64,000 bases of DNA from Patescibacteria group bacterium (GCA_041671225.1 JBAZBY010000001.1:961130-1025129); one strand, 5' to 3'; counted from the stretch's first letter, positions 8,900-58,347 are shown. Program-made: numbers and translations. The notes: a model not told the origin generated them from the letters alone.

Positions 8900-8980
8900 A
8901 TTGCGTCAAGGATACCCTCATAGTATAATCATATCGCTTTATCCAGGCAACGTCTGTACGTCCTGACCCGCATTTTAGCC

Positions 8981-11224
8981 ATGCAGCGTTTCTTTCTTGA
9001 CATCGAAAAACTCCACGTTGGGGACCAAAACGCAAGTGCGCATGCTTCACACGTTTTTCTCGCCCAACCCACTCCGCTCGAGGAGCAAGCTCTTGGGCGT
9101 CTTTTCATATTGGTTGATATTGCGCATCCAGATGAAAACGCAACGAACATTTTGCGTACCATACAAAATGAGCTAAAGGAGTCCTATTACCACACAGAAG
9201 AGCTTGCCATTAGCACGGCATTTGAGGAGGCACTGAATCACGTTAACCGCAAACTCCATAGCTTGGTGCGCGAAGGCATAACGGACTGGCTGGAAGAATT
9301 CTCTGCTTTGATCGGCGTGATCCATGGCGAGCACATCATCTTCACGCACCTCGGCCGCATGGATATGTTTCTTATCCTTGGTCGGCGCATGGTGAATGTG
9401 CTGGATTCTCCGGAACGCGATGAACCTGCAAATCCTCTCAAGATTTTTTCTTCTATTGTTGAAGGTGAACTCACCGAGGGTTCATCAGTATTAATGACAA
9501 CGTCAACGCTGCTGGATTATTTCTCGCAGGAAAAACTCCGACAGCTCATTGTTGGCCGCCCGACACATGAAGCCATCACTGCACTCGAGCAACTCCTGCA
9601 TGAGCATCAACATGATGCGGAATTTCTTGCGATTACCGCGCGCCTCATCCCCACGCATGATGAAGTGCCGATGTATCGCGTACCGGCAAATGAACAGCCT
9701 CGACGCGTACCAACGGGTTCTGACGCATCAATGGATGATCTCATCATCCGCGAGAACAAAACAAACGAACTACTCGCGCCGTCTATCCTCGCAGAAGCGG
9801 GAAAGCGCAGCAGCAAAATTGCGCATGATTTTGCATCATTTTGGCGCACGAAAATTCAGCACAAACCAGAGCGCCGCATACATGCGGGCGGCGTGATTCG
9901 CTCACCGCACAGTATGTCTATCGAACGGCCGCACTACTTCCTGCAATTCGTTGCACTCCTTGAACGCGGTTTGCGAATATTGGTGGGCGGGGGTGTGCGT
10001 GGTGTTCAAAAACTGCGAAAGGAAAAACCTATTCATGAACGCGCACTCGAACTGCCAAAGGAAACAGAGGGACTTATATCCAAGCAAGTGATCCGCTTTC
10101 AGCATCTCCCAAAAAACCGGAAGATAATACTCATGATAGCGCTCGTTGCGCTCGTTGTTTTTGCGCAAAGCATTGTTTGGCTCGGGCAACGTTCACGCAA
10201 TGCGGAACAAACTGAACAACTCGCACTGACATTCGTGAATATTGAGGAGAATCTTCTCGATGCGGAAACCTCTCTGAGTTTTGGCGACAATACCGGCGCG
10301 CAGAGCGTGCTCCGCGAAAATATTCATCTCCTTGATGATGCGCATATATCAAATAAAAACGATCGTGAGCGGGCTGACGATCTTCGCACACGCACCGATG
10401 TGCTACTGAATGAAACGCGCAACATCCACACCATAGATACTATGGTTGTAAAAGCGGATTTTACGAGCTTAAGCCCAGATGCGCAAGGGACAAAACTCGT
10501 TGCAGTAGGAACGCTTCTCTATGCATACAACCCGAATACCAACGCACTCTACCGCGTGGGCACTGATGAGCTCGAACTGACAGTTATTGCACCGCCCGAC
10601 TTTGCGCTTGGTGATGTGCGAATCATGACCACTGATGGTGAACGCATACTCCTTCTGAATAACGACAATCTCCTCTTTGCATACTCCCCTGACGATGATA
10701 CATGGAGTACGCTTTCATTCCCCATTCCTGCTGGTGAGCATAACTTCACTGCCGCAACAACATTTCTGGATCGCCTCTATATGGTTGATGCAAACGAAAA
10801 TCAAATCTTCCGCTTCCCGGCGGCAGCAACGGGATTTGGTGGCTCATCCACTTGGGTGCGAGATGAAGTCATTGCATTCACAAATGCGATTGATATCGAT
10901 ATCGACGGCAATGTCTATATCACTTTTAATGATGGAACTATTCAGCGTTACTTCCAAGGAGCACGTGACACATTCTCACTGAAGGCGGTTGATCCTGAAC
11001 TGACGGTTGCCACTGCGATGTGGACAATTGAAGGCAGTGAGGGTATCTATATTCTTGATGGCCCAGGCAAACGCGTTGTGCGCTTTACAAAAGAGGGTCA
11101 ATTTGTGGAACAATACAGCATCACATCAGAAGCGCCGCTACTTGGCTTCTCTGTTGATGAAGTAAACCAGCGCATATTCATCCTGAACGGCCAAACCGTC
11201 AGCGAGTTTTCCATTTCAGAATAG
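8981..11224 (+). CDS. Hypothetical single-pass membrane protein with C-terminal beta-propeller-like (NHL/SMP-30-like) repeats
   Basis: Central TM IILMIALVALVVFAQSIVWLG. C-terminal repeats such as DIDIDGNVYITFNDGTIQRYF and YILDGPGKRVVRFTKEGQFVEQY. Confidence 0.45.
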   Translation: MQRFFLDIEKLHVGDQNASAHASHVFLAQPTPLEEQALGRLFILVDIAHPDENATNILRTIQNELKESYYHTEELAISTAFEEALNHVNRKLHSLVREGITDWLEEFSALIGVIHGEHIIFTHLGRMDMFLILGRRMVNVLDSPERDEPANPLKIFSSIVEGELTEGSSVLMTTSTLLDYFSQEKLRQLIVGRPTHEAITALEQLLHEHQHDAEFLAITARLIPTHDEVPMYRVPANEQPRRVPTGSDASMDDLIIRENKTNELLAPSILAEAGKRSSKIAHDFASFWRTKIQHKPERRIHAGGVIRSPHSMSIERPHYFLQFVALLERGLRILVGGGVRGVQKLRKEKPIHERALELPKETEGLISKQVIRFQHLPKNRKIILMIALVALVVFAQSIVWLGQRSRNAEQTEQLALTFVNIEENLLDAETSLSFGDNTGAQSVLRENIHLLDDAHISNKNDRERADDLRTRTDVLLNETRNIHTIDTMVVKADFTSLSPDAQGTKLVAVGTLLYAYNPNTNALYRVGTDELELTVIAPPDFALGDVRIMTTDGERILLLNNDNLLFAYSPDDDTWSTLSFPIPAGEHNFTAATTFLDRLYMVDANENQIFRFPAAATGFGGSSTWVRDEVIAFTNAIDIDIDGNVYITFNDGTIQRYFQGARDTFSLKAVDPELTVATAMWTIEGSEGIYILDGPGKRVVRFTKEGQFVEQYSITSEAPLLGFSVDEVNQRIFILNGQTVSEFSISE

Positions 11225-15799: not shown

Positions 15800-18700
15800 A
15801 TGATTCAACTCGTAATAAAGCATAAAACGAAGCAGCGCCTTGTGAAGGCGGTGAACGTTTTTGTGCAGTTCACCTTCGTGGTGTACAGCGTCGGGTTCGG
15901 CTTTTTGGCCGCCCCGATGCAGGCAAACGCAGCTTCCACCCCTATCATCGGTGAAGCGGAAGACACCGCAGGCCTCGTAACCACCACAGACACCAAACAA
16001 CTGGCGCCCGCAGCAGAAACAGTAACCACTGATGCAACCTGCCCCACTGGGGATGTTCATGCATATGTAAGCGCGACTGGGCCCTTGGTCTACGACCTCG
16101 GCCACTACGACGGATCAGCAACGATCACGGGAAATGCAACGACGGCACATTGGGCTGTATCTCCTGGTTACACCATCAGCAAAGTGTGTATAAAAATTGA
16201 CGGTCCTGATGGCGGCAGCTTGATCACAAATCTTGACCCACCAGCAGTCGGAACATACACGAAGGACCAATACGATATCATCAGTATTGTTCTCTACACC
16301 GACCTGACGCCTTATACAAACCCCCGGCTGGCAAATTCATGTGGTCTTGATATTGCGTTGGTCATTGATAGCTCTGGTTCCATTGATACTGGCGAACTTC
16401 TAGACATGAAAAATGCATATCACGCCTTTGTGAATGCACTGCTCCCTGCAACTCCGACGCAGTTCGGTGTTGTGGAATTCGACACGAACGTGGTGACCCC
16501 GACGCTCAGCTTTACGAATATCGCCACCACGGTCAACGATCGCATTGACGATGCAGAGAGCGAAGGTTGGACCAACTGGGCGGATGCCTTGGAAGAAACA
16601 TCCCGTCTCCCGTTTAAAAATCGCACAAATCCTGATCTTGTGATCTTTGCTTCAGACGGCAATCCGAACACGATTGATATCAACGCTCCTGCATACAATG
16701 CCGGCCACTACAGCGACACCACGGCCACGAACGCAGCAATGGTGTACTCCGAGCAGATCAAAGCAGCCGGCATCCGCATACTTTCGGTTGGCATTGGTGA
16801 TGGACTTGATATTGAAAACCTCAAAGCAATCTCCGGACCGAACGTGAACACTGGCAACATCCTGACAAGTGACGTGATCACGACAAGCTTTACCACGCTG
16901 GCGGCAGATCTCGCAAAGGTTGCAACAACACTCTGCGGCGGAACCATCACCGTAACCAAGAATGTGGACGGCACACCGGCAGCAGGCTGGGAGTTCAGCG
17001 CAGATGTAACCGATGGCACCGTGGATCCGGTGAGCGGTACAACGACTGGAACAGAAGGCCAGGTCACGTTTGACATCAGCGACATCGGTGCAAATGGAGC
17101 AACGGCAAGCATCACGGAAACAACGCAGAACGGCTTTGCACTCAATGATGCGTCCTGCAGTGACCAGAATAAACATGAGGTTGGAACCTTCAACCCGCAA
17201 ACGCACAGCGTCGATGGCATTCCAGTGAGTCAGCAAGACATCATCTCCTGCACGTTCAACAACCTCACCCAGAAAGGCGATTTGACCGTCATCAAGCACG
17301 TTGTTGGCGGAACTGCACAAGCATCGAACTGGACCATGAACATCAACAATGGCGTCGGTTCATTCCCTGGCAGTGAAACGGGGACACAGAAAACAGTAAC
17401 CCCCGGAATATACACCGTTACTGAATCCGGCGGCCCGAGCGGCTACACTCTCACCTACTCTGGTGATTGTAATGCACAAGGTGTTGTTTCTGTTGCTTCC
17501 AACGAAGACAAGACCTGCACCCTCACGAACACGCGCGACACGGGCGACTTGACGATCGTCAAGCAAGATCAAAACCAGCAACGCATGCCTGGCGTCGTAT
17601 TCTCGGTTGATGGAACACAGTACACAACGGACAGCAACGGTACCATTGTCGTTCCGGCGCCAGTCTACACCGGTGAACATACTGTCCTTGAAACCTCACC
17701 GGACGGCTATACCTTCTCGAGCGTCACTGGCACGAATTGCACCAACAGCAATCCCTCCATTGCAACGGTTGTCACAGAAGGAACGACCTGTACGTTTACC
17801 AACACCAGAAACACCGCCACTATCACCTTTGACAAGGTGGTGCTCGGCGGTGGTCCAGCAATGGACCAGGACTGGACCTTCACCATTGACGGCCAGGCAG
17901 GCTCATGGAAAGACGGCCAGTCAGTTGCACTCCCCACAGGCACCGGACCGTACACCGTACATGAATCATCTGCATATGATGCACAGTACACATTGACCGG
18001 CGCATCCGGCGCATGTTCGCTCGTGAAGGGAGAGATCAAGCTCAACGTCGGCGATGAAAATGCAACCTGCACGGTGACCAACGCCCGCAAGACGGGCACC
18101 ATCACTGTGAACAAAAAATTCGATGATAACGGCGACGGACAGATCGACCGCACAAATCCCGGAACCTGGACATGGGATGTCGTTGGCGGCACGCAGAACA
18201 ATGCGGGCGGCGCAACCCTGACCCTTCCGACCGGCCCATACACGCTCACTGAAGATACGATCGCGGATTACAATTCTTCCTGGACATGCACGGATACAAC
18301 GAGCGGCAACGGCGTGAGTATTGCTACAACGCTCGGCGCAAGTCAGGATCTCACCTGCACGTTCACGAACACGCGCAAAACCGGCAACGTGACCTTTGAA
18401 AAGGTCGTTGCAACCGGAACAGCAAACCCAAGCGCATGGACGTTCACCATCGATGGAATTGTGGGAACATTCAATCACGGCCAACGCATCTCGCTCCCGA
18501 CCGGAGATTATACCGTCACTGAACACGGCCCTGCGGGTTATTCCAAGACGGGCGCGTCCGGCATCTGCGGTGCGCTGACAGCGCCAACACTGAGCGCTGC
18601 ATTTACTCCCATCATGGAAGGCACTGCCATCATGCATGTCACGGAAGACGGTGGCACGTGCACCTTCACGAACGAACGCGACACCGGAACCATCACCGTT

Positions 18701-21700
18701 CTCAAGAACGTTGACATGGACGGCGACGGCGATATTGACGTGTTCGGCGCAACCGACTGGAGCTGGAACATCACGAATGGCCAGCAGAACATCGCGACCG
18801 GGCAAGTTGTTGAAGTGGAAACCGGCGCATACACCATCACGGAAAACCAGAAGCCTGGCTACCACGTGACGAACGTGACCTGCAATGACAACAATTTCGG
18901 CGCATCGATTTCCGCAGACATCATGGTGAATAAGGATCAAAACGTCACCTGCTCGTTCATCAACACGCGCGACACTGGAACGGTGACCTTCAATAAAGTG
19001 ATCCCGGGATATCCGGACGCAAAGACACTCTTTGAGTTCCGCGCCGACGGACGCATCTTCCATGACAACGAGTCTGGCACATTCCAGACCGGTGAATACA
19101 CCGTCACAGAGAACGACGTTGAAGGATATTCCTTTGACAGCGCTTCCGGCATCTGCGAGTACGACGAAAAAACGCATGACATTACGATGAACGTGACGGC
19201 GGATGGCGGTACCTGCATCATCACCAACACGCGCGACATCGGCACCATCTCCGGAGTGAAGTTCAATGACTTGAACGGAAACGGCGTTCGCGATGCAGGA
19301 GAGCCTGGCGTTGCAAATGTCACCATCAATGCAAACAACGGCATGAGCACGACCACGGATGGTACCGGCGCATTTGCCTTTATGAACGTCCCGACCGGCC
19401 AGTACGCGGTGAGTGAAGTTGTTCCTGCTGGTTGGATCGCGACCACTCCTGCATCGGTCAACGTTACCGTAGTAAAGAATGAAACCGCATCTGTCGCGTT
19501 CGGCAACTTCAAACTTGGGACAATCACCGGTATGAAGTTCAATGATGTGAACGGTGACGGACAGGGCGATGATGAAGATGGTCTCAAGAACTGGACCATC
19601 CAGCTCTGGGTCTGCAATCCTCTTGTGCTTGATACAAACAGCGACAGTGACTTCGGCCTTGATGATGCAACGCGTTTCACAATGGCCTATAAGACCGGGG
19701 ATGTATCCGGCTCGGACGCAAACGGCAACGGTATCATTGATACCGCAGATTTGAAGTGTGCAAAGGATGCATACAGCGATGGCATCTTGAACCCGATCGC
19801 GAGCACGCTGACCGACGAAGATGGAGAGTACTCTTTCAATGACCTCGGCCCTGGCACATACTTCATCACTGAAGTCCAGCAAGACGGCTGGCAGCAAACC
19901 GCACCAGCATCCGGCTACCACCAGGTTCAACTTACCTCAGGTGCGAACATCACTGACAAGGACTTCGGGAACTTCCAGCTCGGCCGCATCAGTGGCTACA
20001 AATATGACACACAGGAAAACTGGCTGAATGGCTGGGAGATCTGCCTTATGCCCGTCGTTGGGCAGCAGGATGATCTTGCACTCACCTCCATAAGTGAAAG
20101 TGAAGACAACTGCGTCATCACCGGATCCGGCGAATGGCCAGATGGGTATTATGAGTTCACGGATCTCTTTGCCGGTATGTATACCGTGCAAGAAACACAA
20201 CAGTCCGGGTGGAAACAAGTCTCCCCGAATGATCCTGGCACATACACCGTGGAAGTCACCTCTGGTACCGGATACGGCGAATCCGAGCTGTATGACTTCG
20301 TGAACCGCCAGCTCTTCCCGGATCTCACCATCAGCAAAGATGACGGACTTGCACAGGCAGAACCAGGCGCAACGCTCACCTATGCCATCACCGTAACCAA
20401 CAACGGCGAGTACGATGCACATGGAGTGTTCATCCTGGATACACTGCCAGCACATGTCACCTACGTCTCTGATACCTCGGGCGTCTCCGTGAATCAATCC
20501 GGCACGACGCTCATGTGGGACTTCCCCGCATTGACGCTTGCCGCAGGTGAAAGCATGAGTTTTGACCTCACGGTAAAGATAGACGACATCATGCCGACTG
20601 GCACCACCACGCTCACCAATGCCATCGTGGTCTCAACTGAATCCGTGGAATCGGATCTCACAAATAACAGCGCATCAGACACAACAACTGTTGCGGCTGC
20701 TCCGATCATCAGCATCGCAAAGAGCGACTCCCCTGACCCGGTTGAAGCAGGTGCACTCCTCACATACACCATTGACTGGGATGTGATGGGCAATGCCGTT
20801 GCAACAAATGTCACCATTGTCGACACGCTGGATGCAAACACGAGCTTTGTCTCTGCTTCAAACAGCGGCGCCTATGATGCAAGCACTCACATGGTCACAT
20901 GGAATCTCGGCGATATCACACCGCTTGCAAACGGCAGCCTCACGCTTGTTGTGCGCGTTGCAAGCCCGCTTACAAACGCAACGGAACTTGTGAACACCGT
21001 TGTCATGGACAGCAGCGAAAACACACCGGTCAATGATGATGAACCGACAACGGTCACATCTGCGCCGGAACTTACCATCACAAAGGACGTGAGCCAGGTT
21101 GCGGCAAACCCAGGAAACAAGATTACCTACACCATCATTGTTAGCAACCTCGCAAGCGCAAACGCTATCGCAAAGGACGTCACGATCAGTGACACCCTGC
21201 CAAATGGCTTCACACTCGCAAGCGACGACAAAGGCGTATACAACGTGAACGTCGGCGATCTTGCTCCTGGTGAAAGTGAAAGCGTCAGCTTTGACGTCAT
21301 CATTGGCAAAGGCGTTACTGCAGGAGCCTACACCAACACGGGTATTGGCGACGCAGACAACAGCGAGCCTGTTGATGATGATGCAGTTATCACCGTCGTT
21401 GTACCAAAGGTTCTCGGCGTTGATACGAGCGCTCAGCTCACCATCAATAAGACCGTGGACAAGGAGGTAATTAATCCTCGAGGATTGCTGCTCTACTCCG
21501 TGACCGTGACCAACGTCGGCGATGAAACCGCGACGAACGTGACCGTGACGGACAACTTGCCACAGGGCTTCACCTTTGTGGCTGACGGAGCGGTGACCAA
21601 GGTCTACGCCATCGGTGATCTTGAACCGAATCACAGCCGCACCATTACGTACCAAGTACGCGTTGCAGAAGATGCAAAGGCCGGTACGTACACCAACCTT

Positions 21701-21907
21701 GCTGTGGCAACTGCGGATAATGCAAGCAAGATCGCTGATCAGGCTGATGTGGAAGTCCGCCCGGGACGCGTCCTTGCGGCAACCGGCGCAGGAACGCTTG
21801 AATACGCAATGGGTATTCTCGCAACACTACTCCTCGCGCTAGGGTTTGCTGGCATCGCCCGCTACGCCCAAAAGCGCCGCGAAGACGAATTGCAGAAAAC
21901 TGCATAA
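15800..21907 (+). CDS. Giant sortase-anchored cell-surface protein (2,036 aa): signal peptide, vWA, ~12 Cna-B/SpaA-like repeats, SdrD-B-like domains, DUF11 repeats, LAATG sorting signal
   Basis: Signal peptide MIQLVIKHKTKQRLVKAVNVFVQFTFVVYSVGFGFLAAPMQANA|AS. vWA MIDAS LVIDSSGSID...FASDGNPNT. ~95-aa repeats ending CTFTNTRDTG/KTG. GxISGxKFNDLNGNG SdrD-B-like units. DUF11 units (LTYAITVTNNG). C-terminus RVLAATGAGTLEYAMGILATLLLALGFAGIARYAQKRRE is LAXTG + TM + basic tail. Confidence 0.85.
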   Translation: MIQLVIKHKTKQRLVKAVNVFVQFTFVVYSVGFGFLAAPMQANAASTPIIGEAEDTAGLVTTTDTKQLAPAAETVTTDATCPTGDVHAYVSATGPLVYDLGHYDGSATITGNATTAHWAVSPGYTISKVCIKIDGPDGGSLITNLDPPAVGTYTKDQYDIISIVLYTDLTPYTNPRLANSCGLDIALVIDSSGSIDTGELLDMKNAYHAFVNALLPATPTQFGVVEFDTNVVTPTLSFTNIATTVNDRIDDAESEGWTNWADALEETSRLPFKNRTNPDLVIFASDGNPNTIDINAPAYNAGHYSDTTATNAAMVYSEQIKAAGIRILSVGIGDGLDIENLKAISGPNVNTGNILTSDVITTSFTTLAADLAKVATTLCGGTITVTKNVDGTPAAGWEFSADVTDGTVDPVSGTTTGTEGQVTFDISDIGANGATASITETTQNGFALNDASCSDQNKHEVGTFNPQTHSVDGIPVSQQDIISCTFNNLTQKGDLTVIKHVVGGTAQASNWTMNINNGVGSFPGSETGTQKTVTPGIYTVTESGGPSGYTLTYSGDCNAQGVVSVASNEDKTCTLTNTRDTGDLTIVKQDQNQQRMPGVVFSVDGTQYTTDSNGTIVVPAPVYTGEHTVLETSPDGYTFSSVTGTNCTNSNPSIATVVTEGTTCTFTNTRNTATITFDKVVLGGGPAMDQDWTFTIDGQAGSWKDGQSVALPTGTGPYTVHESSAYDAQYTLTGASGACSLVKGEIKLNVGDENATCTVTNARKTGTITVNKKFDDNGDGQIDRTNPGTWTWDVVGGTQNNAGGATLTLPTGPYTLTEDTIADYNSSWTCTDTTSGNGVSIATTLGASQDLTCTFTNTRKTGNVTFEKVVATGTANPSAWTFTIDGIVGTFNHGQRISLPTGDYTVTEHGPAGYSKTGASGICGALTAPTLSAAFTPIMEGTAIMHVTEDGGTCTFTNERDTGTITVLKNVDMDGDGDIDVFGATDWSWNITNGQQNIATGQVVEVETGAYTITENQKPGYHVTNVTCNDNNFGASISADIMVNKDQNVTCSFINTRDTGTVTFNKVIPGYPDAKTLFEFRADGRIFHDNESGTFQTGEYTVTENDVEGYSFDSASGICEYDEKTHDITMNVTADGGTCIITNTRDIGTISGVKFNDLNGNGVRDAGEPGVANVTINANNGMSTTTDGTGAFAFMNVPTGQYAVSEVVPAGWIATTPASVNVTVVKNETASVAFGNFKLGTITGMKFNDVNGDGQGDDEDGLKNWTIQLWVCNPLVLDTNSDSDFGLDDATRFTMAYKTGDVSGSDANGNGIIDTADLKCAKDAYSDGILNPIASTLTDEDGEYSFNDLGPGTYFITEVQQDGWQQTAPASGYHQVQLTSGANITDKDFGNFQLGRISGYKYDTQENWLNGWEICLMPVVGQQDDLALTSISESEDNCVITGSGEWPDGYYEFTDLFAGMYTVQETQQSGWKQVSPNDPGTYTVEVTSGTGYGESELYDFVNRQLFPDLTISKDDGLAQAEPGATLTYAITVTNNGEYDAHGVFILDTLPAHVTYVSDTSGVSVNQSGTTLMWDFPALTLAAGESMSFDLTVKIDDIMPTGTTTLTNAIVVSTESVESDLTNNSASDTTTVAAAPIISIAKSDSPDPVEAGALLTYTIDWDVMGNAVATNVTIVDTLDANTSFVSASNSGAYDASTHMVTWNLGDITPLANGSLTLVVRVASPLTNATELVNTVVMDSSENTPVNDDEPTTVTSAPELTITKDVSQVAANPGNKITYTIIVSNLASANAIAKDVTISDTLPNGFTLASDDKGVYNVNVGDLAPGESESVSFDVIIGKGVTAGAYTNTGIGDADNSEPVDDDAVITVVVPKVLGVDTSAQLTINKTVDKEVINPRGLLLYSVTVTNVGDETATNVTVTDNLPQGFTFVADGAVTKVYAIGDLEPNHSRTITYQVRVAEDAKAGTYTNLAVATADNASKIADQADVEVRPGRVLAATGAGTLEYAMGILATLLLALGFAGIARYAQKRREDELQKTA

Positions 21908-22004
21908 AAATGGCATACTGTGGGAGCCTCTGGTGGCTTTGCTCCGGGGCTCCCACATTGGGAATTATTCATACAAATCAACGTCATTTAAGAAAATCCT
22001 ATCT

Positions 22005-25000
22005 ATGAAGAAATATTACAAACCAGCAAAAATTGCGCTCAATGTAATCGCAATTATTGCCATGGTGTTCTACCCCGGGGGTTTTGCCCTTGTGGGTAAT
22101 GCCGCACATGGCAGCACTACCGGAAACGGAAATCCCGGGAGTATCAAAACAACGAATGTCGACTGCGGAAGCGTTCAGACGAACGTCAACCACTACGACG
22201 TAGGCGACCATGTGTACATCCACGGCAATGGTGACGACAAAGGAAGAACCTTTGATCCAGGCACGTACGACTGGGATATTACAGGAAAACCTGGCAAAGC
22301 TTCACAACATCCAAATACTGTCGTTGCACATGGCAGCTTCACTGTGGATGCCACTGGCATATTCTGCTTTGACGCATACACAATCTTACCTGGTGATGGC
22401 GGAACATATGGCGTGACCTTCAATGACAAACACGACAACTACCGCGTGCACAACCCCGCTGTATGCACCAACCCACTTGATTATGTTGATGACCAAGGAA
22501 ATCTCGGTGAAGATGGTGAGGTCTCGCTTTCTGACGCAACTTATTTCACAAACCTGTTTAAACCGAATAGCCTCACAGCAAAAGACCCTGCAGCTGATGT
22601 GAATGACGATGGCGAGGTTGATGATGATGATAAGAATTGTGCAAAAAAATACTACAGCACCGGTGAATACGCTTGCCCGATTGAATGTGATGATGAAGAG
22701 GGTGGGAAAAAAGACAAGTCAAGTCAACAAACGGTGGAACCAACCACAATCTGCTCCAGTCCATTAGACTATGTCCATGAGGACGGAACACTTGGAGCGG
22801 ATGGCAAGATAGGACTCGGCGATGCTGCAAAGTTTGAAGAGTACTACGCAACGCAAGACTCAAAAGCAAATGTCTACATTGGCAACGAGCTCTCAGAGCA
22901 GGATGTCGTGGACTCGCACGACCAAGTTTGTGCAGATAAGTATTATGCTACCGGTGAATACGCTTGTGCACTTGCTTGCCCGGAAGATTATTTTGATCAA
23001 GAACTCACGCTTAGTACTGAAATCACTCCAAAGAGCAATCCTCTCGTTTTTCAGCCAGTATGCACGGAAGGATCTGCATGGGCAAATGAAGTAATCTCTT
23101 CTGACCAAGGAACTAAAAATGACGGAGGTGTTATTGATCTGAACCGCTCAGATGCAACACAAGTCCTTGGCGCAAATGACGGCGTATTCTTCAGTCTTGG
23201 TCGCAAAATCGACCACCCATATGGCGGTACCATTACGGTAAAATTTGCACATCCAGTGGTAAACATTGCTGGCGCAGATCTCACGCTCTATGAAGTGACC
23301 AATGGCGACCGTGTTGCATATGGCGTTGAGAAAGCACAGGTGTCAGTGAGCCAGGACGGCATCACCTGGGGACTGAGCGGCGAGATCAACAACCAAGCGC
23401 CGACCGGCATCGGAGAGATCGACATTAGCAACACCGGAACCGGTTGGACATGGATTCAATATGTGCAAATTACCGATGCAACGGATTTTGAATCGGAATT
23501 TTCCGGCATCCCATCAGCGGATGGCTACGATCTGAATGCCATACAGGCAACGTATCAACTCTGCTCCTGCGTGAGTCCGCTTGATTTGAACAGCTCAGAC
23601 GGCACCAATGTGCCGGACGGCGAGATCGGTCTCTCCGATGCAACGCTGTGGACGCAGTATTTTCTAAATGATAATCCGCGTTCTGATGTGAACGGAAATG
23701 GCGTCAAAGACTACGGTGATTATCTCTGTGCAAAACCATATTTTGCTGACGGTGGCCCATACACTTGCGACATTGAATGTGCTGCAGTTTGTGGAGACGC
23801 CAGTGTTAATCAAGAAACAGAACAATGCGATGATGGAAACATCACGAGTGGTGACGGCTGTTCCTCGATCTGCCAGATCGAGCCGCAAACAGGCTCCCTC
23901 ACCATCTGCAAATACAATGATGTTGACCTGAACGGGACATACGATGATGGAACTGACCTGCCACTACAATGGAGTATGACCGTTGATGCATTGAGTGGAT
24001 CAAATGAGGGAGATACATGGTTCACTGGAACAAACTCGGAAACCGGCTGTGTAACGCTTGAAGGTTTCCCCTACGGAAACTATGACGTCACTGAGGCTAC
24101 CGTAGAAGGCTGGACTGGCACATACCCAAGCGATACCGATATGCAGAATGTCACTCTTGATGCGGAAACGCCAAACCCTGTTGTTACATTCCTTAATGCC
24201 CAAAACACCCCTGCAAGCCTCACCATCTCAAAAACAGACGGCCTTGAAACCGCGGATGCTGGTGCTACGCTTCCCTATGCAATCACCGTTACCAACACTG
24301 GAGAAACAGAAGCAACAGGCGTTGAAGTTGTTGACGCCATTCCTACAGAAGTTGCCTCTGTGAGTAATATCTCAGATAGCGGCGTGGAAGGTGCCGGAAT
24401 CATCACGTGGGAGAATCTCACGATTCCAGCACTGTCATCCATTACACTAACCTTTGATGGAATACTGAATGCAGAATTCCCTGATGGAACAACGATCGTG
24501 CACAATGAAGCAACGCTCGATTGCAGCGAACCCAATCAGGAATTGAGCTTCGCGGTTCTTGATGTTGTTTGCCCATTCAGCGGCACAGGAACGGATGACA
24601 CGTCGGTAACGATCACCCCAGAAAAAGTAGTCATTACCACTGCACCAATACTTACCATTGAAAAGAATGTGGACAAGTCATCTGTTGTAGCGGGAAGCAA
24701 CGTTACCTACACCATTACGATCACAAACAACGGCGATGGCACTGCAGAAAATGTCGTACTTGCTGATCCTCTGCCAGGCGACTTCTACATCACGCTGAAC
24801 AACAACACTGCATACAATGAATCAGTCGGTGATCTCGCGGCAGGAGACGCGGTAACGACAAGCTACACCGTAACCATTCCGTCAGACACGGCAAATGGTG
24901 ACTATGTGAACACGGCAACGGTCTCTGCAAGCAACTATGCAGATATCAGCGATTCCGCTACCGTCACCGTCTCCCGTCCAGGGAGAGTGCTCGGCGAGGA

Positions 25001-25199
25001 CACGCAGCAGCATCTCGTGGTCCCCGGCACCATCATTGATGACACCACGGCACAACCAACAGGCAAGGTACTCGGCGCGGAAGATCTCGCAGAAACCGGT
25101 GCAGGACTCATGGAATACATCATGTTTACGCTTGCCGCACTTATGATCGGCTTTGGTATCTTCGGCATCCGTAAAGCGAACATCATCAAAAACGACTAA
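22005..25199 (+). CDS. Second sortase-anchored surface protein (1,065 aa): dockerin-like Ca-binding repeats, Cys-rich CxxCDDGNxxxGDGCSxxC repeat, prealbumin-like and DUF11 domains, LAETG sorting signal
   Basis: Signal peptide MKKYYKPAKIALNVIAIIAMVFYPGGFALVGNAAHG. Four repeats of C..PLDY..(D/E)DG.LG.DG...L.DA..F....DVN(D/G)(D/N)GEVDD...CAK.YY..GEYAC. Myxococcus-type Cys-rich repeat CGDASVNQETEQCDDGNITSGDGCSSICQIE. C-terminus GKVLGAEDLAETGAGLMEYIMFTLAALMIGFGIFGIRKANIIKND. Confidence 0.85.
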   Translation: MKKYYKPAKIALNVIAIIAMVFYPGGFALVGNAAHGSTTGNGNPGSIKTTNVDCGSVQTNVNHYDVGDHVYIHGNGDDKGRTFDPGTYDWDITGKPGKASQHPNTVVAHGSFTVDATGIFCFDAYTILPGDGGTYGVTFNDKHDNYRVHNPAVCTNPLDYVDDQGNLGEDGEVSLSDATYFTNLFKPNSLTAKDPAADVNDDGEVDDDDKNCAKKYYSTGEYACPIECDDEEGGKKDKSSQQTVEPTTICSSPLDYVHEDGTLGADGKIGLGDAAKFEEYYATQDSKANVYIGNELSEQDVVDSHDQVCADKYYATGEYACALACPEDYFDQELTLSTEITPKSNPLVFQPVCTEGSAWANEVISSDQGTKNDGGVIDLNRSDATQVLGANDGVFFSLGRKIDHPYGGTITVKFAHPVVNIAGADLTLYEVTNGDRVAYGVEKAQVSVSQDGITWGLSGEINNQAPTGIGEIDISNTGTGWTWIQYVQITDATDFESEFSGIPSADGYDLNAIQATYQLCSCVSPLDLNSSDGTNVPDGEIGLSDATLWTQYFLNDNPRSDVNGNGVKDYGDYLCAKPYFADGGPYTCDIECAAVCGDASVNQETEQCDDGNITSGDGCSSICQIEPQTGSLTICKYNDVDLNGTYDDGTDLPLQWSMTVDALSGSNEGDTWFTGTNSETGCVTLEGFPYGNYDVTEATVEGWTGTYPSDTDMQNVTLDAETPNPVVTFLNAQNTPASLTISKTDGLETADAGATLPYAITVTNTGETEATGVEVVDAIPTEVASVSNISDSGVEGAGIITWENLTIPALSSITLTFDGILNAEFPDGTTIVHNEATLDCSEPNQELSFAVLDVVCPFSGTGTDDTSVTITPEKVVITTAPILTIEKNVDKSSVVAGSNVTYTITITNNGDGTAENVVLADPLPGDFYITLNNNTAYNESVGDLAAGDAVTTSYTVTIPSDTANGDYVNTATVSASNYADISDSATVTVSRPGRVLGEDTQQHLVVPGTIIDDTTAQPTGKVLGAEDLAETGAGLMEYIMFTLAALMIGFGIFGIRKANIIKND

Positions 25200-25837
25200 T
25201 GACAGAAACCCGTAGTGAGGATCACACGGGGGAAACACGAGGAGGGCGAAAACGAATCGTACTCCTCGCTGTTTCCATAGGTCTTCTCTTGATTGGTGCG
25301 GCGCTCATTGCATATCCGTTTCTCCCGCGCATCAAATACGCGCTTCTCAAACCAGAGCCACAGTTTCCATACCAGTCCCGCCTCATTGATGAGAATCCTG
25401 AACTCGCTTCCCTTCCAGAAACCGCGTTCAAGCCAGTCCCAGAGGATAATCGCCTGGTCATTCCAAAAATAGGCGTTGACGTCGCGATCGTGGAAGGGGC
25501 AGACCAAAATGCACTGAATCGCGGTATCTGGCACATCCCTGACACATCAAACCCGACACTGGGCGGCAACACCGTTCTCTCTGGTCACCGCTTCCAATAC
25601 CTCCCGCCGAGTTCGCAGACGCTTTATCTGCTGGACAAGCTGGAAACACATGATGACATCATCATCTACTGGGAAGGCAAAGAATATGATTACAAGGTAA
25701 CCGGCCGCGATATCATTCTCCCAACGCAAGTTGAAATATTAGAGAACACCAGTAACGCACAATTGACGCTCTTCACGTGCACACCGCTCTTCACGACATC
25801 AAAACGTTTAGTTATCTTTAGCGAACAAGTGAGCTAA
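25199..25837 (+). CDS. Sortase (class E-like, candidate LAXTG-specific transpeptidase)
   Basis: N-terminal TM anchor. Catalytic His in TVLSGHR. TLxTC motif QLTLFTCTP. Conserved Arg in KRLVIF. Start overlaps the preceding stop (TAATG). Confidence 0.85.
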   Translation: MTETRSEDHTGETRGGRKRIVLLAVSIGLLLIGAALIAYPFLPRIKYALLKPEPQFPYQSRLIDENPELASLPETAFKPVPEDNRLVIPKIGVDVAIVEGADQNALNRGIWHIPDTSNPTLGGNTVLSGHRFQYLPPSSQTLYLLDKLETHDDIIIYWEGKEYDYKVTGRDIILPTQVEILENTSNAQLTLFTCTPLFTTSKRLVIFSEQVS

Positions 25838-25839
25838 TT

Positions 25840-26928
25840 ATGAAAAAAAATATGTTAACTGTGCTTCATGGGGGGCTGGCACGGATTCTCGTTCTCTTCA
25901 TTGTTATACTCGGTCTTGGTGTGCCTGCCGCACATGCACAAATGGGCCCGGTAACAGAAATCCAGCTCTCAGAAACAAAGAGCACCGTAACAAGCGATAA
26001 CATCGTTCCCTTTCTTGTACATGCGCTTGATGCAGCGGGAAACGTAGAAGAGGTCACCGCAGATGCGGTCTTCTCGGAAAATGATCCATTTGGTGACTTT
26101 TCTGCGAATGTCTACTTCCCTGGCATGGTAGGAACATGGGATGTACAGGCAACTTATAATGGTTTCGCCGTGCAAACCACCATCACTGTAACAGAAGGTC
26201 CATTGGCAACCATCGTTATCAACCCGAATACGAATCCGGAAATCATCAATATGAATGAAACGCGCGCATTCATTGCGCAGGGTTTTGACGCGGATAACAA
26301 TATTGTTGCTGAGTTGTCACCAACGTGGGCTGTCCAAGGGACTGCGGGTACCATTGATGAATCAAGTGGAGTCTTTACGGCAAAAGCTGAAGGGGATGCC
26401 ACAATCACCGCAACAATGGGCGACGTGAGTGCTGCGGCACGCATCACGGTCAAAAAAATTGCGACCGGCGAAGAAACGCCTCCAGTGCCTCCACCAGCGC
26501 CAGCAACAACCACGAACACAAACACTTCATCTCCAGCAACAACCGGTGAGGTGCTTGGCGAAGAAACCGAAGATGAACAGGCCGCGCAAGTTGATGAAGT
26601 GACGGAAGTGACAGCAGAAAACGTAACAACGACTGCGGAAGAAGCCGTAACCGAAGATTGCGCCACCTATGCATGGTGGGTGTGGATGCTCGGTATTATC
26701 GTCTACCTCGTCTTGCTTGGTGTTTATTACTACACCGTTCGCATGCGTAATGAGCTTACGATCTGGATCGCTCCGGTGATCCTCACTGCCGCAGGTCTCT
26801 GGGCATTCTTTGCTCTTACCTGTGCAGGACACTTCCTCTGGGTTCCCTGGATACTCGTGATCGGCGGACTCCTTGTGACGCTCTTCCGCCCACGTGAATT
26901 CCAACCAGAAAACGGCCAGGAGCTCTAA
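25840..26928 (+). CDS. Ig-like (Big_2) domain protein with signal peptide, Pro/Thr-rich linker and C-terminal multi-TM anchor
   Basis: Signal peptide ...GVPAAHAQ. Two Big_2-like modules (ATITATMGDVSAAARITV). Linker PPVPPPAPATTTNTNTSSPATT. Three C-terminal hydrophobic helices. Confidence 0.55.
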   Translation: MKKNMLTVLHGGLARILVLFIVILGLGVPAAHAQMGPVTEIQLSETKSTVTSDNIVPFLVHALDAAGNVEEVTADAVFSENDPFGDFSANVYFPGMVGTWDVQATYNGFAVQTTITVTEGPLATIVINPNTNPEIINMNETRAFIAQGFDADNNIVAELSPTWAVQGTAGTIDESSGVFTAKAEGDATITATMGDVSAAARITVKKIATGEETPPVPPPAPATTTNTNTSSPATTGEVLGEETEDEQAAQVDEVTEVTAENVTTTAEEAVTEDCATYAWWVWMLGIIVYLVLLGVYYYTVRMRNELTIWIAPVILTAAGLWAFFALTCAGHFLWVPWILVIGGLLVTLFRPREFQPENGQEL

Positions 26929-29404: not shown

Positions 29405-30853
29405 TTATTTGAATTGCTTGCTTGCCGCAATGAGGCTTGAAAAAAGATCCTTTAGGTCCGGGAAGGATTCAATCTCCTGGCGCGTCATGGCGCGGGCGGC
29501 GGCGCGGTTCATTTCCTTGTCGTACCAGCGGATTTGGTGTTCCAAATATTTGTACGGCCGATTCGCAAAATTCTGCGGGACGCGCTTGCCAAAAGCGCTG
29601 CGGAGTGCACGCGGGGTGAAATAATTCTCGATCGCACGGCGTTCCAGAATAAGACAATACATATGTGAGTGATAGCATCGATCGCGGAAGCGGAAATGGC
29701 TCACATCTCCCTGATCCTGCTTGCTGCTTTTCTCCGAATCCAATACCACAAACGAGAAAAGGTTATTCTCCTTGAGCCGCACGGGATCCATGTTCATGTT
29801 CCCGACCGCGCCGCCGCCCAGCTGCTGTATGGAAAGCTGCACTTCCTTAAGTTCCGGGAACTTGCGCACAAATTCATCAAACACGGCAATATCCCACGGG
29901 CCCTCAACATAAAGGATCATCTCCGCCGTGAGAATGCTTTCTGGATGCGTGCCGGTATACACCAAGCTGCGCAAGAGTTCGTCCCGATTTCGCTTGCGCG
30001 CACGAACGCGCTGTTGTCCATCGCGTTGTATATGATAAAAATTCAAATGCCTGTGCTGATTCAAAAAAAGCGGCGATCTCGTCGCAATAAAGATCTGTTT
30101 TTGATACCCCTTGCTTATCCGTGAGGTAAGAATGCGCATGAACTTACGCCCCAGCGACGGGAAGAAGTGGAACTCCGGCTCGTCAATGAGCAGCACATCA
30201 TACCGCGGGTCATGAAGATACAGCAGCGTCTTGACGGTTCCCAAAAATCCAATGCCAAAAAAATCGAGTATCGCCTGCTTCGGATTATCACCAAGCAGCA
30301 AGTGTGGAAAAAAATCCGTAAGCGCTGCGAGAAAATCCGCCCACGCGTCTTTCTGTTTTGCAAGTGCATCAAGTTCCACAGCTAGGCGCTTGCGTTGCAC
30401 AACAGCAGACTCAGGACCCCCATAATACACGTCCTTGCTCTTGTTCTCCCATGAAGCAACATATTTGATGCGCGCGCCAAGATTATGCACGACCTTTCCA
30501 CCTTGAACGTCATTGATCGCCTTACCATTCATGGTAACGGTATCCCCTGCGCTTCCTGCTGCGGCGCCATGCGTTTCTACCTCAGTCGTAATGCCATACT
30601 GCTTCCCGTCTGCCGTGAGCCCGGTTTCAATCGAGTAATACTTCTCTGCTTTGCCGTGGACGATATTAAGAAAACCGAAAAATGCCTGCTCGTCGTCAAT
30701 GGACGCGTGCCGGAATTGAAAATACAATGACTCAAGAATGCTCGTCTTTCCTGCACCATCCGGACCGATGAAAATATTCACTGGGCCGAAATCCGCAAGC
30801 GAGAGTGAATCCACCGCTTGAAAATTCTTGATGCTGAGTGAAGTGATTCGCAT
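29405..30853 (-). CDS. OLD-family endonuclease: N-terminal ABC-type ATPase + C-terminal Toprim (class 1, stand-alone)
   Basis: Walker A FIGPDGAGKTSILESL. Walker B VLLIDEPEFHFFP. C-terminal Toprim ILYVEGPWDIAVF ... FVVLDSEKS (E...DxD). Confidence 0.75.
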   Translation of the reverse strand: MRITSLSIKNFQAVDSLSLADFGPVNIFIGPDGAGKTSILESLYFQFRHASIDDEQAFFGFLNIVHGKAEKYYSIETGLTADGKQYGITTEVETHGAAAGSAGDTVTMNGKAINDVQGGKVVHNLGARIKYVASWENKSKDVYYGGPESAVVQRKRLAVELDALAKQKDAWADFLAALTDFFPHLLLGDNPKQAILDFFGIGFLGTVKTLLYLHDPRYDVLLIDEPEFHFFPSLGRKFMRILTSRISKGYQKQIFIATRSPLFLNQHRHLNFYHIQRDGQQRVRARKRNRDELLRSLVYTGTHPESILTAEMILYVEGPWDIAVFDEFVRKFPELKEVQLSIQQLGGGAVGNMNMDPVRLKENNLFSFVVLDSEKSSKQDQGDVSHFRFRDRCYHSHMYCLILERRAIENYFTPRALRSAFGKRVPQNFANRPYKYLEHQIRWYDKEMNRAAARAMTRQEIESFPDLKDLFSSLIAASKQFK

Positions 30854-30923: not shown

Positions 30924-32603
30924 TTATTTCTTTCGAGATTTCATGATAACCGCTGGAACAAAAACAACGATAAATACGGTCACAACAAGCACAAGCCAGA
31001 GTAACCATGGAGTGTTGTCATTAGAAGAAGAGGTCCCGGTTGGGGATTCAGTGTTGCTGTTTGCCACGGTGAAAGCAATCATATCGCTTTCGCTGAGCAC
31101 TGTCCCTGCATTATCACTCACCGTCACCTCAACGGTATGCTCACCTGCTGCAAGCGGACCGGGCAACGTGTATGACCACGCGCCGTCTGCGTTGGAAACC
31201 ACACTCGTGAGGATGGGGTCAGCGCTGGCAATGACAAGTGACACAATGCTATTCGGCGTCGTTGTACCGCTCAAAGTAATAATATCGGTATCGCGATACA
31301 ATGCCCTTCTCGCCTTAAATGCTCCATTCGATTCAATAAGTGAAAGCACTGCGGCATTCTGCGTAGCACCTTCCGCGGTTGCCGTTTCATCCGGGGCATT
31401 TTCGGAAAGCCAGTTTGTCAGACGGTTCAACGGGGTATTGTGATCCAAATGAAACTGAAGCTCCGTGCAGCGCGGCTCACGACCCCAATGCTGCTGGTAT
31501 GCTGCAGCGGCCGCGTCAAGATATGTATCAGTGTCTGTCCCAACACGCAACGCCTCAGAAACGCGAATAGTCCGCTCGTTTGCCTGTTCTGTGGAAATAG
31601 TGCAACCAAACTTCTCACCAATACTCTCCCCGGCAAGCCACTCCTTCAACCGATCAATTGATGTATTGTGATCCAAATGAAACTGAAGCTCCGTGCAGCG
31701 CGGCTCACGACCCCAAACATCTATATAGGCATCATAAACCTGCCCTAAATAGTTATCAGTGGTACTGCCTGCAGTGAAGCGCGAACGGACACGCACGGTA
31801 GCCCCATTTGCTTCACTGGTTGAAATGGAACAACCGTATGCTGCACGCAAAAAAGTATCAGTGGGAGTTTCGCTTGCGCTAGTATTGCTCCCATTCTTCG
31901 TTTGCGCTTTGCCTGCCGCAAGGGTGGTGAAGGATTGCTCGCTTGTGGTAACGGAACGATCCGCATCAAGAATGGGATTCTCCCAATCCATAGTGACGCC
32001 TGCCATGAGCGTGAAATAATAGGTCGTTTCCGGATTGAGGCTGGTAAATTGAATTGAATGCAGCACATCGCCGCCATGGCCGCCATAGTCGCCGGTTCTA
32101 TTTGGCAGCGTTCCGCTGACCGAGCCATACTGCACCTCTGTATAGGTTGAACGATTGGTCCTGACATACAGCGTCGCTGTGGTATCGGTAATCTCACTGA
32201 AATACATCTCCTCAATCACGACTCCCTGTTTTGGCGTATGAAAATCACCTGCCGCCGTACTGGTATTCTCAGAAGTGTCCGTAGCGGTAATTTGATAGTA
32301 ATATGTTGTGTCAAATGCAAGATTTTCCAGCAGGGCAATGTGTCGCATGCCCTGATATGTTGATGTTGCTGTGGCGCTTTGAGTGTATGAACCAGAATTA
32401 ATGCCGAAACGAACCACGCCCGTGGTTGTTTCATTTGTTGCCCAGTCAATGCCTTCTGTTATTGTTGCTGACTCCTGAAAAACTTGCGCAGCTGGCAGTT
32501 GGATAACCGGTGGATCCGGATCCTGCGCATCTGCGCGCTGCACAAACCCCCACCCAGTGGAAATCACTAGGGCGGCAACAAATAGTACGAAAAATCTTTT
32601 CAT
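30924..32603 (-). CDS. Secreted, C-terminally membrane-anchored protein with FN3/PKD-like domains and an internal ~75-aa duplication
   Basis: Signal peptide. Duplicated WGREPRCTELQFHLDHNT..(I/P)..RL..WL segments (nucleotide repeat 31440..31492 vs 31662..31715). C-terminal TM WLLWLVLVVTVFIVVFVPAVIMKSRKK. Confidence 0.55.
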   Translation of the reverse strand: MKRFFVLFVAALVISTGWGFVQRADAQDPDPPVIQLPAAQVFQESATITEGIDWATNETTTGVVRFGINSGSYTQSATATSTYQGMRHIALLENLAFDTTYYYQITATDTSENTSTAAGDFHTPKQGVVIEEMYFSEITDTTATLYVRTNRSTYTEVQYGSVSGTLPNRTGDYGGHGGDVLHSIQFTSLNPETTYYFTLMAGVTMDWENPILDADRSVTTSEQSFTTLAAGKAQTKNGSNTSASETPTDTFLRAAYGCSISTSEANGATVRVRSRFTAGSTTDNYLGQVYDAYIDVWGREPRCTELQFHLDHNTSIDRLKEWLAGESIGEKFGCTISTEQANERTIRVSEALRVGTDTDTYLDAAAAAYQQHWGREPRCTELQFHLDHNTPLNRLTNWLSENAPDETATAEGATQNAAVLSLIESNGAFKARRALYRDTDIITLSGTTTPNSIVSLVIASADPILTSVVSNADGAWSYTLPGPLAAGEHTVEVTVSDNAGTVLSESDMIAFTVANSNTESPTGTSSSNDNTPWLLWLVLVVTVFIVVFVPAVIMKSRKK

Positions 32604-55047: not shown

Positions 55048-55239
55048 GCCATATCCAAAGGCCAACGCGAGTGCTGCCCCGAGGCGTGGGGATTTCGTCA
55101 GGTTCTTGTTCTTGCCCCGTATGTGGGGATTGCGTAGAAAGCGCTTTCCACGAACGTGGAGGCAAAGCAACCTGTGCGGTAACCCGCACGTCGAGCCCAA
55201 GCCAAACCGAAAGGTACGGGCGAAGGGCAAGGAGTAGCC

Positions 55240-58088: not shown

Positions 58089-58204
58089 CGTCCGCTCCTT
58101 TGCAGGATAACTACCTGCCGTACAGCAAGATTGGGAGACGCTTGTGGTCTCCCCTTTTCCGAGCCACAGAACCACTCATCCGGCTATGCCGGATTCGGGT
58201 TCTG

Positions 58205-58290
58205 GGTTCAGAAGAGGTTGCCCTTTACAAATATTTCAGCGGGGGAATTCTGTACCTCATGTTTTGCGGTGCAGTATTCCCTCGCCGAAG
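58205..58290 (+). repeat. Island leader element copy 8 (GGTTCAGAAGAGGTTGCCCTTTACAAATATTTCAGCGGGGGA-loop-TCCCTCGCCGAAG)
   Basis: Same architecture as the other copies, with a variant stem. Confidence 0.55.
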
Positions 58291-58347
58291 TAGTAGTACG
58301 CGAGGCATCATCCGCGGCAACGGCTGCGGACAAGGAGGGTCTCACCT

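Follow-up and report, generated by a model that had tools for sequence, protein, structure and literature searches.

A Patescibacteria operon with two giant adhesins and a lineage-specific sortase predicted to anchor them to the cell wall

Two giant surface proteins ending in L-A-x-T-G, with a sortase gene directly behind them, raise the question of which kind of sortase this is and what it builds in a bacterium of the Patescibacteria. The locus occupies positions 15800-26928 of a 64-kb stretch (hereafter the window) of a Patescibacteria genome, and an earlier note on this DNA had described it as a complete sortase-substrate module with a class-E-like enzyme that may build a pilus-like fibre. 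By open reading frame (ORF) calling, the window contains here four co-directional genes, with both neighbours in opposite orientation:

15800-21907, + strand: P1, fibrillar adhesin precursor, 2035 amino acids (aa) (ORF, translation, public gene call, Pfam)
22005-25199, + strand: P2, second adhesin precursor, 1064 aa (ORF, public gene call, Pfam, NCBIfam)
25199-25837, + strand: sortase, 212 aa (Pfam, NCBIfam, AF2 model, Foldseek, invariant columns)
25840-26928, + strand: P4, immunoglobulin (Ig)-like membrane protein, 362 aa (AF2 model, Foldseek, alignment)

We consider it probable that this four-gene operon builds covalently wall-anchored adhesins by means of a lineage-specific sortase outside classes A-F. 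The observation itself is far beyond chance.

The four gene lengths agree with public gene calls for the identical contig. As the stop codon of P2 and the ATG of the sortase overlap as TAATG, and the P4 start follows the sortase stop after a gap of 2 nucleotides, P2, sortase, and P4 are probably translationally coupled. The host is a metagenome-assembled genome (MAG) of the Patescibacteria (Candidate Phyla Radiation, CPR); a public record of the identical sortase, encoded on a 1.03-Mb contig, bears the name 'MAG: sortase [Patescibacteria group bacterium]'. Genes for the cell envelope flank the operon (mannose-1-P guanylyltransferase-like, MltG/YceG, UppP/BacA, and undecaprenyl-PP synthase), which makes a lipid II or peptidoglycan acceptor plausible. 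No second sortase was found in the 64-kb window, to which the sortase and substrate counts for this organism refer. No tandem repeats were found at the DNA level.

Both giant proteins carry a tripartite sorting signal with Ala at position 2, as the earlier note had recognised:

21773-21904, + strand: P1 sorting signal, with LAATG at 21773-21787, AGTLEY, a hydrophobic helix at 21806-21859, and the basic tail RYAQKRRED...
25086-25196, + strand: P2 sorting signal, with LAETG at 25086-25100, AGLMEY, a hydrophobic helix at 25119-25169, and the tail RKANIIKND

The C-terminus of P1 reads ...RVLAATGAGTLEY-AMGILATLLLALGFAGIA-RYAQKRREDELQKTA, with a hydrophobic stretch of 18 residues, and that of P2 reads ...VLGAEDLAETGAGLMEY-IMFTLAALMIGFGIFGI-RKANIIKND. 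When the ORFs of the window were scanned permissively in all six frames, P1 and P2 were the only proteins with L-[A/P]-x-T-G followed by a helix and a basic tail. A tail profile built from 57 tails of other loci, from which the window's own tails were left out, likewise picked out P2 (E 1.5e-11) and P1 (E 3.3e-6) and nothing further in the window, where the hit ranked third has E 0.19. Pfam PF00746 (LPXTG anchor) gave no match on either tail, even at E<=10, and TIGR01167 gave none on P1 or P2 at E<=0.01. As PF00746 is blind to these tails, routine annotation will miss such substrates.

Two further observations in the window concern large or surface-exposed products. The large ORFs at 44325-47582 (- strand, 1085 aa), 42621-44222 (- strand, 533 aa), and 8981-11224 (+ strand, 747 aa) have no Pfam match at E<=0.001 and no sortase tail signature, the best being ORF 8924-11221 at E 0.19. 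The 559-aa protein at 30924-32603 (- strand) has a purple-acid-phosphatase N domain and Big_13 Ig domains and ends in a membrane helix and KSRKK; it is without L-x-x-T-G and is a surface protein anchored without a sortase signal.

For comparison we used 80 related sortase loci from species-representative genomes (numbered with the prefix L), with sortase relatives coming from Kerfeldbacteria, Parcubacteria, Dojkabacteria, Saccharibacteria, and groups like these. In 39 of the 80 loci, the sortase is directly preceded by at least one large ORF whose product ends in a helix and a basic tail, and these loci together with the window give the 40 loci and 59 tails on which the following counts are based. 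Position 1 of the signal is L in 51/59, position 4 is T in 59/59, and position 5 is G in 57/59, while position 2 is A (28 tails), P (14), V (9), T (4), or E (4). In the tails of the other loci, T-G is followed by [AVT], [GS] (50/57), two variable residues, Asp (50/57), and usually Tyr before the helix; the Asp of this extended signal (+5, just before the helix) is Glu in the window's tails. On these counts the signal of the clade would be L-[A/P/V/T/E]-x-T-G-[AVT]-[GS]-x-x-[D/E]-Y followed by a helix and a basic tail. The use of Ala at position 2 follows phylogeny: of the 26 tails next to sortases with 50% identity or more to that of the window, 24 have it, and none does beside sortases less than 45% identical. 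Furthermore, tails that differ at position 2 are found beside single sortases, namely LATTG+LPATG, LPKTG+LAATG, LVDTG+LPDTG, LPETG+LTETG, and LTTTG+LAETG (mixed A/P, A/T, V/P, or P/T in loci L006, L015, L022, L023, L034, and L041). This suggests that the sortase clade is tolerant at position 2 rather than equipped with an Ala-specific pocket.

The three closest loci, L086-L088, are fully syntenic with the window, and their sortases are 64-78% identical to that of the window. Their tails read RVLAATGAG.LEY and LAETGAG..EY, with the pentapeptides exactly kept, so that the LAXTG segments are present in the orthologues; their absence, which the earlier note had named as a refuting outcome, is thus not what is seen. 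The adhesin bodies in this set range over 1491-2035 aa and 780-1378 aa, with length differences of up to 40-50%. The tails are conserved and the adhesin bodies are fluid among syntenic orthologues.

The third gene encodes a member of the sortase superfamily (PF04203 92 bits, cut-off 26.6; TIGR01076 74.8 bits, cut-off 39.35). Its motifs TLFTC (Cys194), SGHR (His130), and Arg203 are invariant in 38 relatives, in agreement with the TLxTC, His, and Arg motifs read earlier in a gene overlapping the adhesin stop codon.

25586-25588, 25778-25780 and 25805-25807, + strand: catalytic residues His130, Cys194 and Arg203 of the sortase
25361-25375, + strand: conserved segment (QFPYQS) of the sortase, aa 55-59, with the F-P-Y-Q-S motif at 25364-25375, in the linker between helix and barrel (alignment of 38 relatives)

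The AF2 model (pLDDT 88.6) has an N-terminal membrane helix (aa 16-50), a linker, and a catalytic barrel (aa 85-212). The protein ends 9 residues past Arg203 and has no C-terminal membrane helix. In a Foldseek search against PDB, sortases of classes C, A, and E matched alike, with E 1e-11 to 1e-13 and a TM-score of about 0.54, so that these scores do not discriminate between the classes and class assignment by fold was abandoned. The linker contains a conserved [F/L/Y]-P-Y-x-[T/S] segment, with Pro57 and Tyr58 in at least 90% of the 38 relatives. It forms a beta-bridge in the AF2 model and loosely resembles the sorting motif, and could be a pseudo-substrate or a lid.

None of the NCBIfam class models reached its cut-off on this enzyme: class C NF033745 gave 81.3 bits (cut-off 160), class E NF033747 72.4 bits (160), and the class D models NF033746 and NF058671 67.7 (165) and 68.6 bits (140). 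All 38 aligned relatives are also under the class cut-offs (class E best at E 1.1e-22). A neighbour-joining tree of 129 columns with 10 references of classes A, C, D, and E, none of B or F, and with the S. aureus SrtA sequence entered by hand, placed the CPR sortases together in 100/100 bootstraps. They joined class C in 43/100, the D+E group in 41/100, and class E alone in 0/100 bootstraps. The class E PDB reference sequences of this tree were retrieved with a Streptomyces plasmid sortase (L081) that is itself annotated only as 'sortase'. The CPR sortase clade is distinct, and none of these deeper groupings reached half of the bootstraps. NCBI does not name the relatives consistently ('sortase', 'class D', 'class E'). 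When 1.84 billion representative proteins were searched by profile, 21,650 sortases were recovered, of which 602 clusters (50% identity) matched the CPR profile at E<=1e-30; this indicates that the clade is large. Thus, the enzyme appears to belong to a Patescibacteria-specific sortase clade outside classes A-F, in which Ala at position 2 would be a habit of the window's subclade. As a side observation, the TPA MAG records of L007, L009, L010, L020-L022, and others, which carry this sortase clade with its typical substrates, are titled 'uncultured Gammaproteobacteria bacterium'; their gene content looks Patescibacteria-like, and the titles may be mislabels.

The first substrate, P1, has a signal peptide (aa 1-45) and Pfam matches to VWA, SpaA, SpaA_2, SpaA_4, SdrD_B, and DUF11, arranged as follows:

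16349-16846, + strand: von Willebrand A (VWA) domain with the metal-ion-dependent adhesion site (MIDAS) DSSGS at aa 190-194 (Pfam VWA 49.1 bits, cut-off 23.8)
16946-19240, + strand: eight CnaB/SpaA-type repeats of 88-101 aa each (repeat alignment; Pfam SpaA, SpaA_2, SpaA_4)
19241-20320, + strand: three SdrD_B-like units (Pfam SdrD_B 56.3 bits; motif positions)
19646-19819, + strand: dockerin/EF-hand-like insert in the second SdrD_B-like unit, aa about 1283-1340 (motif positions)
20321-21769, + strand: four DUF11 (CLIPPER) stalk domains (Pfam DUF11 176 bits, 4 stretches)

The VWA domain is likely a ligand-binding head. This domain and the SdrD_B-like units had been recognised correctly from the sequence alone, and the Cna-B/SpaA-like repeats are also real (Pfam SpaA 70 bits); their number is eight rather than about a dozen, counted as repeats with a period of 88-101 aa that end in C-T-F-T-N-T-R, and the DUF11 domains number four rather than five. 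DUF11 has recently been renamed CLIPPER and identified as an isopeptide domain of the CnaA-like type, which typically forms stalks of fibrillar adhesins (PMC12617251). The CLIPPER sequences show K...D...N positions. The CnaB-like repeats of P1 all conserve, in addition to a Cys pair, a Lys in strand A, the Glu of YTVTE, and the Asn of TFTNTR. Such a Lys/Glu/Asn triad is what forms internal isopeptide bonds in CnaB-type domains. From the conserved Lys/Glu(Asp)/Asn triads, internal isopeptide bonds are predicted in the stalk domains of P1. The last DUF11 domain of P1 ends in ...VRPGRVL and continues straight into the sorting motif; the '(R/K)VLG' string is not a part of the sorting signal but the end of the last CLIPPER domain. 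No YPK/PKN pilin motif was found in P1 or P2.

P2 has a signal peptide (aa 1-35), one SpaA/SdrD-like unit, and the following modules:

22464-22691, 22752-22979 and 23568-23786, + strand: three Cys-flanked dockerin/EF-hand-like modules of about 75 aa (module sequences)
23187-23564, + strand: domain of about 125 aa between dockerin-like modules 2 and 3, aa about 395-520
23787-23885, + strand: Myxococcus-type Cys-rich acidic repeat (TIGR02232 43.2 bits, cut-off 20.8; Pfam DUF4215)
24213-24959, + strand: two DUF11/CLIPPER domains (Pfam DUF11 92 bits, 2 stretches)

The third dockerin-like module matches the GC-type dockerin model NF041540 with 32.8 bits (cut-off 29), and Pfam Dockerin_1 gave 20.9 bits on P2, under its 22.9-bit cut-off. 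The earlier note had seen four DVNDDGEVDDDD dockerin repeats; dockerin-like modules are indeed present, but they are three and the DVNDDGEVDDDD string occurs once. Its Myxococcus-type Cys-rich repeat is borne out by TIGR02232. The domain of about 125 aa had no Pfam or NCBIfam match, and no cohesin partner of the dockerin-like modules was identified. In seven Kerfeldbacteria loci (L006, L008, L013, L015, L017, L018, and L020), a giant LATTG protein is accompanied by a protein of about 220 aa directly upstream of the sortase, which consists of one DUF11/CLIPPER domain (DUF11 by Pfam on the L015 copy) and an LA[A/E]TG[V/I]GQLD tail. Its homology is to the C-terminal 190 aa or so of P2; by BLAST, P2 aa 872-1060, that is, the last DUF11 domain and the tail, is homologous to the small proteins of L006, L008, L013, and L015. 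Both P1 and P2 fit the fibrillar-adhesin layout of head, stalk, and anchor.

The fourth protein, P4, has a signal/anchor helix, two Big_2-like Ig domains, a disordered Thr/Pro/acidic linker, and three C-terminal membrane helices.

25951-26193 and 26203-26454, + strand: Ig domains of P4 (AF2 model, Foldseek)
26659-26889, + strand: three C-terminal membrane helices of P4 (AF2 model)

The model was made from a 6-sequence alignment, with confident Ig domains and helices of low confidence. The best Foldseek matches are the LigA Big_2 tandem and the S-layer protein SbsC, in keeping with the Ig-like nature proposed earlier, and no Pfam or NCBIfam family was above cut-off. Near-invariant in the alignment are a W-rich motif and two Cys with a predicted location outside, C274 and C328. 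Of the 80 loci, 31 have a P4 homologue behind the sortase, all of them closer relatives, and so do L086-L088 (34 loci in total); the homologue is lacking in the more distant half of loci, where sortase and substrates persist. P4 is thus a candidate conserved accessory of this sortase subclade, and one may speculate that its Ig domains bind the dockerin-like modules of P2. In more distant loci (L019, L022, L028-L030, L032, L033, L036-L040, L048, L056, L057, L063, and L075), a protein of about 480-530 aa with a CAP/SCP domain, an Ig-like domain, and a C-terminal helix lies between the sortase and the P4 homologue, and in some of them (L032 and L057) ComEC is found further downstream.

In the most probable scenario, P1 and P2 would be exported by Sec via their N-terminal signal peptides, after which the helix and basic tail at the C-terminus would keep them in the membrane. 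The membrane-anchored sortase, using Cys194, His130, and Arg203, would then cut L-A-x-T-G between Thr and Gly and, through a thioacyl intermediate, transfer the protein to an amine of a peptidoglycan precursor, by which the adhesin would join the cell wall. P1 would display its VWA/MIDAS head on a stalk of 8 CnaB-type, 3 SdrD_B-type, and 4 CLIPPER (DUF11) domains, and P2 its dockerin-like Ca-binding modules on a shorter CLIPPER stalk. The arrangement of the genes, the motifs, the fold, the clade, and the conservation and synteny are shown by the data, while the site of cleavage, the peptidoglycan acceptor, the isopeptide bonds, the adhesive function, and any part played by P4 are inferred.

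Alternatively, the sortase may be a polymerising class C-like enzyme, which would join P1/P2 or P2-type DUF11 subunits head-to-tail via Thr-Lys isopeptide bonds before they are anchored. The top hidden Markov model, PDB-sequence, and Foldseek scores all belong to class C pilus sortases, the length of the catalytic domain fits the class C model without gaps, and the substrates are made of pilin-type isopeptide domains. In addition, the pairs of a giant and a small single-DUF11 protein in Kerfeldbacteria recall tip and base subunits, and the conserved segment before the barrel could act as a lid. However, the class C model gives only 81 of the 160 bits of its cut-off, the enzyme has neither a DP[F/W/Y] lid motif nor a C-terminal membrane anchor, and the grouping with class C is found in less than half of the bootstraps. 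Substrates of 1064-2035 aa with their own adhesive heads have the layout of fibrillar adhesins and not of pilins, and pilus loci normally need a separate housekeeping enzyme. A single sortase in the window and the lack of a pilin motif in P1 and P2 argue for anchoring rather than polymerising. We therefore regard a polymerising enzyme as unlikely, and the pilus-like fibre envisaged earlier is not supported.

It is also conceivable that peptidoglycan is not the acceptor and that P4, a lipid, an S-layer protein, or another surface component takes its place, or that the tails are plain membrane anchors while the sortase works elsewhere. P4 is conserved beside the sortase, has extracellular Ig domains, and lacks a known function, and little is known about the CPR envelope. 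In addition, the near-invariant Asp before the helix sets the extended signal apart from canonical ones, and the Pfam LPXTG-anchor model is blind to the tails. On the other hand, T-G is invariant and its distance from the helix fixed in the 59 tails that lie next to sortases, which is the signature of sortase cleavage, and the operon sits among genes of the lipid II/peptidoglycan cycle. P4 is missing in the distant half of loci, which keep sortase and substrates, and the P4 alignment revealed neither a conserved exposed Lys nor an N-terminal Gly/Ala that could serve as acceptor. Such a role of P4, of another acceptor, or of the tails as simple anchors seems quite unlikely.

The remaining possibility is a class E sortase or a close analogue, specific for LAXTG. 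The structural hallmarks of class E have been described for SrtE1: a long beta6/beta7 loop and a Tyr in the beta3/beta4 loop (Tyr229 in SrtE1, Tyr128 in TfSrtE) that reads the Ala at P3 of the substrate (PMC5148588). On this reading, such a Tyr would hydrogen-bond the Ala amide. In a sequence alignment only, this Tyr (GHY in 5go6, GWY in T. fusca SrtE) aligns with Ile113 in GIWHIPDT; sortase residues 100-133 contain no Tyr, and the column is mostly Ile or Leu in the relatives, with Tyr in 2/38. The beta6/beta7 loop is about 14 residues in the model, 8-10 shorter than in 5go6 and TfSrtE, and lacks the P-V-P segment. Although Ala is present at position 2 of both substrates and their orthologues and in nearly all tails beside the closer sortases, some Kerfeldbacteria relatives are named 'class E sortase' by NCBI, the class E model gives a sub-threshold match of 72 bits, and the clade joins the D+E group in some bootstraps, we consider class E very improbable, as the score is under half of the 160-bit cut-off and lower than that of class C, both hallmarks are missing ('PVP...' insertion included), pairing with class E alone never occurs, the mixed tails beside single sortases argue for tolerance and not Ala specificity, and the NCBI naming is inconsistent. 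The class-E-like label of the earlier note was thus not upheld, the host being a member of the Patescibacteria and not an actinobacterium, and neither was class E specificity, as position 2 in the wider clade is A, P, V, T, or E.

Several points weigh against wall anchoring by an enzyme outside the known classes. Half of the 80 related loci have no detected substrate beside the sortase. The tree is small, limited to neighbour-joining, without class B or F, and with one reference sequence entered by hand, and the enzyme is closest in sequence and fold, if narrowly, to class C sortases, which polymerise pili. Cleavage between T and G and the acceptor are extrapolated from classes A-E. Moreover, further substrates or another sortase could be encoded in the 1-Mb genome outside the window. 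Some relatives hold two paralogous sortases of the clade, each with its own upstream substrate (L032, at 5543-6112 and 9914-10525; L012 and L013, in one MAG, JACQKI01), and thus one sortase per genome cannot be assumed for the window's organism.

We propose tentatively, and with somewhat less than even confidence, that the CPR enzymes form a previously undefined sortase class, spread across Patescibacteria with about 600 clusters at 50% identity, in which four features come together. First, the position third from the cleavage site may be relaxed, taking A, P, V, T, or E. Second, the extended signal L-x-x-T-G-[AVT]-[GS]-x-x-D-Y may define the substrates missed by current anchor models. Third, access to the active site may be controlled by the conserved [F/L/Y]-P-Y-x-[T/S] segment, which is pseudo-substrate-like. 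Fourth, one large subclade may use P4, with its three helices and two Ig domains, as a dedicated membrane partner in anchoring.

Elsewhere in the window, an AAA_15/AAA_21 ATPase of 482 aa is encoded at 29405-30853 (- strand), and is found at the same syntenic position in L087 and L088; ATPases of this kind often occur in defence or toxin-antitoxin contexts. The segment 52000-59500 has a G+C content of 0.58-0.63, against about 0.50 elsewhere, and ORFs that overlap on both strands. Its ORFs 52611-53207, 53987-54820, 55098-55880, and 58131-59321 have no Pfam match, and the segment may be of foreign origin or otherwise unusual.

Patescibacteria have a lifestyle of attachment to other microbes, and, type IV pili apart, little is to our knowledge known of how they attach. 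Giant adhesins that bear a VWA head and are anchored in the wall would be plausible factors of host attachment. Sortase substrates of Patescibacteria are probably under-counted in current annotations, as their tails escape LPXTG-anchor models, and the signature L-x-x-T-G-[AVT]-[GS]-x-x-D/E-Y with a helix and a basic tail offers a direct way to list them. The natural tolerance of A, P, V, T, or E at one position could also interest users of protein ligation. The basic picture of sortase biology is unchanged.

Sortases and sorted proteins in CPR genomes were noted earlier (PMC3812714, PMC6744442). In the literature on CPR sortases we found only general statements and nothing on class, signal, or partner (subscription journals were outside the search). 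Likewise, a distinct clade, a variable position 2, the D/E-Y signature, and the P4 partner were not found described in the searchable literature, Pfam, NCBIfam, or PDB.

Among known systems, actinobacterial class E sortases (S. coelicolor SrtE1 and SrtE2, T. fusca SrtE) resemble the window's sortase in their N-terminal membrane anchor, the lack of a lid, substrates with Ala at position 2, and a presumed housekeeping role in anchoring. In contrast to them, the window's sortase is below half of the model cut-off, has Ile113 for Tyr and a short beta6/beta7 loop, and belongs to a separate clade from Patescibacteria hosts, in which position 2 of the signal may also be P, V, T, or E for the relatives. 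The class C sortases S. agalactiae SrtC1, A. oris SrtC2, and C. diphtheriae SrtA are its best matches (25-32% identity, E about 1e-13), with an equal catalytic-domain length and substrates with CnaB/CnaA-type isopeptide domains. Unlike these, it has no DP[F/W/Y] lid, no C-terminal helix, and no partner housekeeping sortase in the locus, and its substrates are giant multi-domain adhesins without a pilin motif. SafA, a small membrane protein linked to the actinobacterial housekeeping sortase, is like P4 in position only (PMC9282373), each being encoded directly next to the sortase; P4 differs in its 362 aa, two extracellular Ig domains, and three helices, and no similarity or FPW motif was seen, nor was one tested for.

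With the sortase-anchored fibrillar adhesins of Gram-positive bacteria (SdrD, Cna, SpaA-type, CLIPPER; PMC12617251), P1 shares the signal peptide, head, isopeptide-type stalk, and sorting signal. Unlike those adhesins, it combines CnaB-type, SdrD_B, and CLIPPER repeats, the system includes dockerin-like and Myxococcus-type modules, the tails are unrecognised by the Pfam LPXTG-anchor model, and the host is a CPR bacterium with a genome of about 1 Mb. The Ala-using subclade appears to have converged on the signal known from class E while lacking the determinants of that class, which we did not find described before. In summary, a system of this kind is already known, and what is new is its lineage-specific variant.

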